A stretch of 64,000 nt of DNA, from NCBI GenBank assembly GCA_963707635.1, contig OY970173.1:224001-288000 (forward strand), in the 5' to 3' direction. A program made the position numbers and the translations under genes. The stretch is from Candidatus Latescibacterota bacterium. Lineage in GTDB: Bacteria > Krumholzibacteriota > Krumholzibacteriia > WVZY01 > JAKEHA01. This document shows positions 21,982 through 61,224 of the stretch, piece after piece; the first letter of the stretch is position 1; each line of letters starts with the position of its first letter. Below the pieces are notes generated by a model. The model made no database searches, was not told the origin of the DNA, and saw only the letters and a list, made by a program, of their open reading frames with translations.

Positions 21982-22298
21982 TGGCTCCCCGGGTAGGACT
22001 CGAACCTACAACCCTGCGGTTACAAGGGTTCCCTTTGTTGCCAAAGGGCTCGGACTATCTCATCACCCGTCCCGAATGGCTCAGGCGAGGGTGTCGGGCG
22101 CTGATGGGGCTTATCGGTTGAGAATCCTCATCCCCTAGTCTCTGCACGTTCCCGCCTACTTGGTCATCTCATTCGGCGGGCTTCGCTCAGGATTACCCTG
22201 TAAGGGCTTCCCTGAATTCACCCGATTTTTCACCAACGGTCTCCCGTTGGAGCTGCATTCGAATACAGCCGCATGCTCTACCATTGAGCTACCGAGGA
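21982..22298 (-). tRNA. trnN: tRNA-Asn(GTT), split by a group I intron (exons 22265-22298 and 21982-22022)
   Basis: Spliced sequence TCCTCGGTAGCTCAATGGTAGAGCATGCGGCTGT|TAACCGCAGGGTTGTAGGTTCGAGTCCTACCCGGGGAGCCA folds into a full cloverleaf with anticodon GTT, discriminator G and encoded CCA. Confidence 0.95.
22023..22264 (-). ncRNA. Group I self-splicing intron (IC-like), 242 nt, no homing endonuclease ORF
   Basis: P1 GCUGU/GCAGC with U.G at the splice site; P2 CCAACGG-GAGA-CCGTTGG; P3 TCGGGTG/CGCCCGA; AATTCAGGGAA..AATCCTGAG; GTGCAGAGACT..GATAGTCC (P7); P9 CCCTTTG-GCAA-CAAAGGG; terminal G. Confidence 0.93.
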
Positions 22299-22310: not shown

Positions 22311-22339
22311 AGAATATAGTCCCGGATGCCGGTTGTCAA
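22311..22339 (-). promoter_or_regulatory. sigma70 promoter of tRNA-Asn
   Basis: TTGACA-17 bp-TATTCT, ending 12 bp upstream of the tRNA. Confidence 0.8.
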
Positions 22340-57213: not shown

Positions 57214-61045
<3,832 letters not shown>

Positions 61046-61224
61046 CGTATCCTCAGCGTGACGGGGTCGTTGCAGTGAGCGTCCGCGCGTTCTTGAAACC
61101 GCCTACGACGCGTGCGGGCGCAGGGCACGAAGGCCACTGCGCCTGGGGCGCTTGCGCGCAAACACACGCCGGTAGACGCCGGTCGCCTGCGCGACCCCGG
61201 GCGTCGGTCGGCGTACTTCGCGCG

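Follow-up and report, generated by a model that had tools for sequence, protein, structure and literature searches.

An ORF-less group I intron in the anticodon of a non-CPR tRNA-Asn(GUU) gene, probably the descendant of a mobile element with a predicted HNH nuclease

The tRNA-Asn(GUU) gene described here carries an insertion inside its anticodon, which raises the questions of whether the gene can still yield a tRNA and how the insertion came to lie there. We examined it in a 64-kb window (the whole stretch of DNA analysed, 64,000 nucleotides) and in the genome to which the window belongs, referred to as G000. The reading that we hold to be very probable is that the housekeeping tRNA-Asn(GUU) is split by a self-splicing intron lacking an open reading frame (ORF), which entered as a mobile element bearing an HNH nuclease and later lost that nuclease.

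A group I intron between anticodon positions 35 and 36

An intact group I intron interrupts the tRNA-Asn(GUU) gene within the anticodon, after U35 and before U36 (site 35/36), as had been claimed by an earlier reading of this DNA made from the letters alone (the sequence-only reading), the coordinates of which proved exact. The intron occupies positions 22023 to 22264 on the reverse strand, on which all features of the split gene given below also lie, and is 242 nt long with G as its last base. The covariance-model search proposed earlier returned a match to RF00028 at 22274-22031, well over the gathering cut-off (95.5 versus 50 bits, E 2.3e-23), and this was the sole Rfam match in the window. 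A six-frame check of the 242-nt intron gave a longest stop-free stretch of at most 47 codons and hence no ORF, in agreement with the earlier statement that the intron contains no homing endonuclease.

The 5' exon (22265 to 22298, 34 nt) ends at U35, its last bases forming the 5' strand of P1, and sequence comparison found the same exon in intron-less relatives. The 3' exon (21982 to 22022, 41 nt) runs from U36 to the encoded CCA. Joined, the two exons gave a normal 75-nt tRNA-Asn fold, and ARAGORN with introns allowed reported tRNA-Asn(gtt) i(35,242). With default settings ARAGORN found no tRNA in the 64-kb window, as anticipated by the suggestion that standard finders may miss this gene. A sigma-70-like promoter was present at 22311 to 22339, 12 nt before the tRNA (-35 TTGACA, 17-nt spacer, -10 TATTCT); the promoter search yielded one site with 10/12 matches, and shuffles averaged 0.3. 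The -35 hexamer was found upstream of tRNA-Asn in 9/9 intron-bearing members of the genus and in 0/3 empty congeners (relatives L004-L018), and the upstream region of tRNA-Asn in these three empty congeners differs from that of the carriers.

P1, P2-P9, the hairpin between P7 and P3' and the terminal G were found in the 242-nt insert, among them all structural elements named by the sequence-only reading. The 3' strand of P1, the internal guide sequence (22251 to 22258), makes the U35.G wobble, and the L1 loop is 4 nt long. The P2 hairpin follows (22233 to 22250), with 7/7 pairs changing on both sides. P3 (22225-22219 with 22100-22094) encloses P4, P5, P6/P6a, the 5' strand of P7, and P7.1. P7 (22142-22136 with 22057-22052) contains the guanosine-binding G-C pair, and 6/6 of its pairs are invariant in 24 sequences. 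P7.1/P7.1a, which forms the additional hairpin that separates P7 from P3', lies at 22103 to 22135, and in P7.1 4/4 pairs change on both sides. P8 (22061 to 22093) was recognized by core fold and covariation, and the segment comprising P9.0, P9 and the terminal omega-G (22023 to 22051, omega-G at 22023) by pairing and covariation. The core features of the P3-P7 pseudoknot with its G-binding pair and of the P4-P6 domain were thus present, and the intron fold gave z = -3.29 (200 shuffles).

The covariation was measured on an alignment of 24 of the 110 cores (8 full introns of the genus and the 16 nearest relatives from other phyla), with the structure drawn from the 242-nt copy. In these 24 introns, 95.3% of paired cells were compatible with pairing versus 85.1% after shuffling and 34-46% after sliding, and 29/60 pairs changed on both sides versus 18.3 in shuffles that ignore relatedness (0/500). 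The covarying helices were P2, P6a, P7.1, P8 and P9. P9.0 paired in 103/112 resolved Asn introns (shuffles: mean 44.4, maximum 59), and because this pairing covaries, the 3' splice site is fixed. The count of guide motifs (112/112) and that of terminal G residues are products of a loose or built-in search pattern and were set aside as evidence.

Among eight registers, a U before the 5' site together with a G at the intron end occurred only at 35/36. There is a negligible probability that splicing follows another register and yields a different anticodon, for instance Thr(UGU): a UGU loop would result from shifts of -2 to -4, and five viral copies are labelled Thr by ARAGORN, but those shifts lack the U/omega-G pair, P9.0 covariation fixes the intron end, the tRNA body is identical to intron-less tRNA-Asn, and the genome already has its own Thr(UGU).

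A predicted P11 pseudoknot (22119 to 22171) would pair the P6a loop (22171-22167) with the P7.1a loop (22123-22119). Both motifs were present in 32/110 introns, which gave 26 distinct pairs, and the mean Watson-Crick run in these was 4.19 versus 2.71 +/- 0.21 in shuffles that ignore relatedness (0/5000). The signal was weaker on MAFFT columns, where 79% of cells pair and 1/3 pairs change on both sides. The classical tRNA introns belong to subgroup IC3, which is not known to have an extension between P7 and P3'; the covarying P7.1 at that place speaks against IC3. Taken together, P7.1 and P11 suggest, from sequence comparison, that the 242-nt intron is IA1-like. In the IA1 intron of the Candida albicans mtLSU gene, P11 joins P7ext to P6 (PMC12088405; see also Jaeger et al. 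1991). The extension after P7 and the P6-P7ext pseudoknot are common to both introns, whereas the 242-nt intron is far smaller, has a tRNA host and shows no P9.1.

Splicing and the second tRNA-Asn gene

The 242-nt intron likely self-splices to restore tRNA-Asn. By the usual mechanism of group I introns, P1 would fold in the pre-tRNA transcribed from the promoter upstream, with U35.G marking the 5' site. A free guanosine held at P7 would then cleave there, and P9.0 would position omega-G, upon which the exons would be ligated. Metatranscriptomes from 24 runs were considered (best share 0.20), and the five contig sets examined contain intron relatives only. One contig (run X4, with 30 letters on its shorter side) joins the exons, and any intron-less relative with the same exons could supply that contig.

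It is improbable that the intron, though real and spliced, needs host proteins in vivo. Some group I introns are assisted by host factors (PMC3984707), and in the precursor P1 would compete with the anticodon stem. Against such a need, the core is complete and the P7.1/P11 brace undamaged. The 35/36 introns of CPR bacteria are also said, in the work of Nakagawa and colleagues from 2025, to self-splice in vitro, which counts against it as well.

The earlier proposal to check whether the split gene is the only tRNA-Asn led to a second one: an intron-less tRNA-Asn(GUU) at G000:C1:1664314, so divergent that 44/75 positions match the split tRNA-Asn. This second gene was intact in 9/16 congeners and in 6/13 genomes of the same order searched, and in 0/6 other genomes of the same family. 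The isodecoder (G000:C1:1664290-1664388; L230:4290-4389; relatives L233-L247) is nearly invariant in the genus and also found in a sister family, with compensatory stem changes among relatives. In G000 only, a 23-nt tandem duplication breaks the 5' half of the gene and leaves two acceptor-stem mismatches. The duplication is possibly an assembly artefact, since at least one other place in the assembly seems to contain an indel error: rpoB (window positions 57214-61102) is in two frames, apparently through an extra nucleotide near 59,400 that was probably introduced in assembly. If the duplication is true, the split gene is the sole intact Asn tRNA gene in the genome.

The second gene is also what could be said for a dead intron in a tRNA pseudogene, with Asn supplied by the intron-less copy, given that this copy is intact in the congeners and same-order genomes counted above. 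We consider this very improbable, and less likely than a need for host proteins: the exons show no change, the core has stayed invariant with compensatory changes elsewhere, a promoter lies upstream of the split gene, and the second gene in G000 carries the 23-nt duplication, unless that is an assembly error. Self-splicing remains our preferred reading.

Two further group I introns were found in the genome, one in 23S rRNA and one in a CAU tRNA. The former (G000:C1:1538472-1539124, L002) carries a 138-aa LAGLIDADG_1 ORF. The latter, of 604 nt, lies at 33/34 of an Ile2-like tRNA (G000:C1:1685003-1685682, L003) and is likewise present in congener G003 (L254); its P1 loop holds a 125-aa antisense ORF, 41% identical to the HNH-type protein of congener G001 described below.

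Host and distribution of Asn 35/36 introns

The sequence-only reading had placed the host outside CPR, and this was borne out. The genome is a single contig of 3.2 Mb with 66% G+C and encodes uL30 (PF00327, 74.4 bits), whereas Patescibacteria/CPR are described in PMC12641178 as having genomes of 0.5-1.5 Mb and no L30. Host RpoA was 49% identical to that of an Acidobacteriota genome and 47% to that of a Nitrospirota genome, and 39% and 38% to those of two CPR genomes.

Among 16 congeners, the intron was present in 8, the gene was empty in 3 and 5 gave no match; an intron-length match was found in 0/44 relatives more distant than the genus. The junction pattern matched 8/208 genomes of the phylum, all in this genus (the G005 locus is cut by the contig end). 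Judging from these matches, this genus is the only one in the phylum that has the intron, and empty alleles are scattered among its carriers.

Searched over GTDB, the junction pattern gave at least 120 loci, of which 92 were resolved to both exons and 28 were not, mostly for want of upstream DNA. Among the matches listed, all of the resolved loci (92/92) were Asn(GUU) 35/36 introns. Going by record titles, which are fallible, 34 of these 92 listed loci belong to CPR and 43 to named non-CPR bacteria, the remainder comprising 5 uncultured proteobacterial bins, 3 DPANN archaea and 7 unnamed records. The listed non-CPR carriers are titled as Omnitrophota, Cyanobacteriota, Acidobacteriota, Nitrospirota, Elusimicrobiota, Planctomycetota, delta lineages and others. 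The earlier view that a non-CPR host is unusual does not fit these counts (43/92 versus 34/92 resolved loci among the matches listed): Asn 35/36 introns are common outside CPR among those matches. The Patescibacteria introns of Nakagawa and colleagues reportedly lie at the 35/36 site in Asn and Asp hosts, belong to the IA class, and are rare outside CPR and mostly endonuclease-free; compared with that account, many copies here are non-CPR, and 16/92 of all resolved loci among the matches listed carry an HNH-type ORF.

Several of these occurrences are of interest in their own right. Contigs titled Pacearchaeota or Woesearchaeota carry Asn 35/36 introns (L111, L117 and L217, going by titles). 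The introns of filamentous cyanobacteria form a single clade (100/99; L103, L110, L112, L114, L123, L133 and L151), which includes cultured Microcoleus, Tychonema and Floridaenema and is tractable for splicing tests. A looser pattern gave 68 viral matches, 17 of which were resolved, as 12 Asn 35/36 introns and 5 with a UUU anticodon. The phage tRNAs with the UUU anticodon that carry 35/36 introns are L053, L093 and three more viral loci, and an Asn intron and a Lys-type intron occur together on one large phage contig of 543 kb (L039, L093).

In the intron tree, the sequences of the genus grouped together (100/99). They were nested in a larger clade of 24 rows (96/94), whose other members include introns from Acidobacteriota, Nitrospirota, delta lineages and Margulisiibacteriota; none of its rows has a CPR title. 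The comparison with CPR introns that the sequence-only reading had proposed thus came out in two parts: the genus clade stands among non-CPR introns, yet a grouping of the genus with the two nearest CPR introns (L105 and L107) was not rejected (p-AU 0.166), and these trees allow that a CPR donor may have supplied the intron of the genus. A clade of the genus plus all CPR introns was rejected, which says little because the CPR introns are themselves not one clade.

Probable mobility of the intron and its place among known systems

The sequence-only reading had left the spread of the intron unexplained, whereas relatives offer a candidate agent. Congener G001, a sister species, has a 543-nt copy of the intron with a 115-aa ORF that lies in the P1 loop (L1) and runs into the core. 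Among the listed GTDB introns, 19/92 resolved copies exceed 400 nt and 16/92 have a complete sense-strand HNH-type ORF, and G005 retains an ORF remnant corresponding to residues 86-115 (the last 30) at 83% identity to G001. In 19 aligned copies, which are 43-70% identical to the G001 protein, the motifs CxxC, HH and CxNCH are invariant. The G001 ORF scored 21.1 bits against Pfam HNH, just under the cut-off of 21.4, and its Atlas neighbour clusters were HNH at 0.98. Its predicted model (pLDDT 84.6) gave best Foldseek rows that were nearly all HNH nucleases and weak (E 0.37 or worse, none at or below 0.001), and a profile search gave weak matches to a maturase and McrA; comparison with NCBIfam and with PDB sequences returned no match. 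The intron likely spread as a mobile element by means of this predicted HNH homing endonuclease. A free-standing relative of the HNH-type ORF lies in G087, directly upstream of a tRNA cluster and outside any intron (L253).

To follow the intron within the genus, a host tree was built from the rpsD-rpoA region of 14 genomes with known state, after removal of 6/20 (four of unknown state, one partial and one on a long branch). Both a single clade of carriers (p-AU 0.0009) and a single clade of empty congeners (p-AU 0.003) were rejected, and what keeps either set from being monophyletic is the position of G005 as sister of G002, an empty congener. The G005 locus lies at a contig edge, and the contig could be mis-binned. 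A G003/G006/G014 group was found in the host tree and the intron tree alike. We infer a history in which the genus was invaded once, close to its base, and the intron was then inherited mostly vertically, with most lineages losing the endonuclease; in the G002/G005/G007/G013 branch, the intron would afterwards have been lost twice or have re-invaded once.

Alternatively, the intron may have entered the genus without an endonuclease of its own, by reverse splicing or by gene conversion with a phage tRNA, the G001 ORF being acquired later. In keeping with such an entry, 7/9 carriers in the genus, including the 242-nt copy, are without the ORF, and of the 12/68 viral pattern matches that are Asn 35/36 introns, 2 have an ORF. 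We nevertheless judge it unlikely, though somewhat less so than a need for host proteins in splicing: close non-CPR relatives (Nitrospirota and delta lineages) have the ORF in the same loop, with a protein tree grouping of 94/96, and the G005 remnant shows decay of the ORF within the genus. Entry with the HNH-type nuclease, followed by its loss, is the reading that we retain.

A separate claim, that the same tRNA serves as an integration hotspot, was not upheld in the window, which has neither a tRNA-end repeat nor a recombinase or integrase nearby. The 64 kb contained the tRNA-Asn 3' end once and no integration island, PF07508 recombinases were absent from the whole genome, and the three genome matches to PF00589 all lie at least 560 kb from tRNA-Asn. 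A dip in G+C at 18-22 kb of the window coincides with unannotated ORFs. Downstream of tRNA-Asn in relatives, 2/18 ORFs tested were serine recombinases and 2 were restriction-modification genes, and no pair of these flanks shares a match of more than 100 nt; by its gene content, the locus looks like an integration hotspot in some relatives. Elsewhere in G000, about 890 kb from the tRNA, a 7.3-kb segment directly after queG lies between two copies of the tRNA-Asn 3' end (C1:1134858-1142160, L231) and resembles the decayed remains of a tRNA-Asn-type island in a secondary location.

The fMet intron enzyme I-Ssp6803I is a PD-(D/E)XK nuclease. The classical introns of tRNA-Leu(UAA), Arg, fMet and Ile2 (IC3) are likewise self-splicing introns of the anticodon loop, but tRNA, site and subgroup differ from those seen here, and the nuclease here is a predicted small HNH-type protein. 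The Synechocystis fMet intron reportedly also encodes a nuclease aimed at the anticodon region (Bonocora and Shub 2001, cited in PMC3984707). Introns at new sites in tRNA anticodon loops are already in preprints, and the 242-nt intron adds an example, not a new system. Williams 2020 (bioRxiv 10.1101/2020.01.27.920355) distinguished 21 classes of anticodon-loop tRNA introns, mapped by U(-1)/omega-G; in its main text, only the four classical classes are marked IC3, no endonuclease is described and Asn is not named, and in its numbering the tRNA-Asn 35/36 site would be Asn.4Ug. Group I introns at an unusual site in Patescibacteria tRNA genes are the subject of a further preprint (Nakagawa, Amikura, Omae and Suzuki 2025, bioRxiv 10.1101/2025.07.03.662931); compared with Patescibacteria 35/36 introns, the host here is non-CPR and the intron falls in the 96/94 clade with introns of Acidobacteriota, Nitrospirota and delta lineages.

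For genome annotation, the finding means that default tRNA finders miss the intron-split tRNA-Asn or call its relatives Thr, and therefore genomes appear Asn-less or the wrong copy is credited. It also offers a testable route of mobility, through a predicted HNH-type protein of about 110 aa aimed at a very highly conserved DNA target. A broader reading, which we put forward tentatively as a minority possibility, is that these introns, far from being peculiar to CPR, constitute a homing element that crosses phyla, is in part carried by phages, and has an HNH family of its own and a P11-braced, non-CPR subfamily of IA1, the invasion being buffered by the second tRNA-Asn. If this is true, one genus presents the whole homing cycle in four stages: the full (predicted) nuclease, its remnant, an intron with none, and the empty allele. 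The divergent second tRNA-Asn, which the nuclease would be expected to spare, may then have buffered the invasion, and if that gene is truly broken in G000, asparagine decoding would now depend on splicing.
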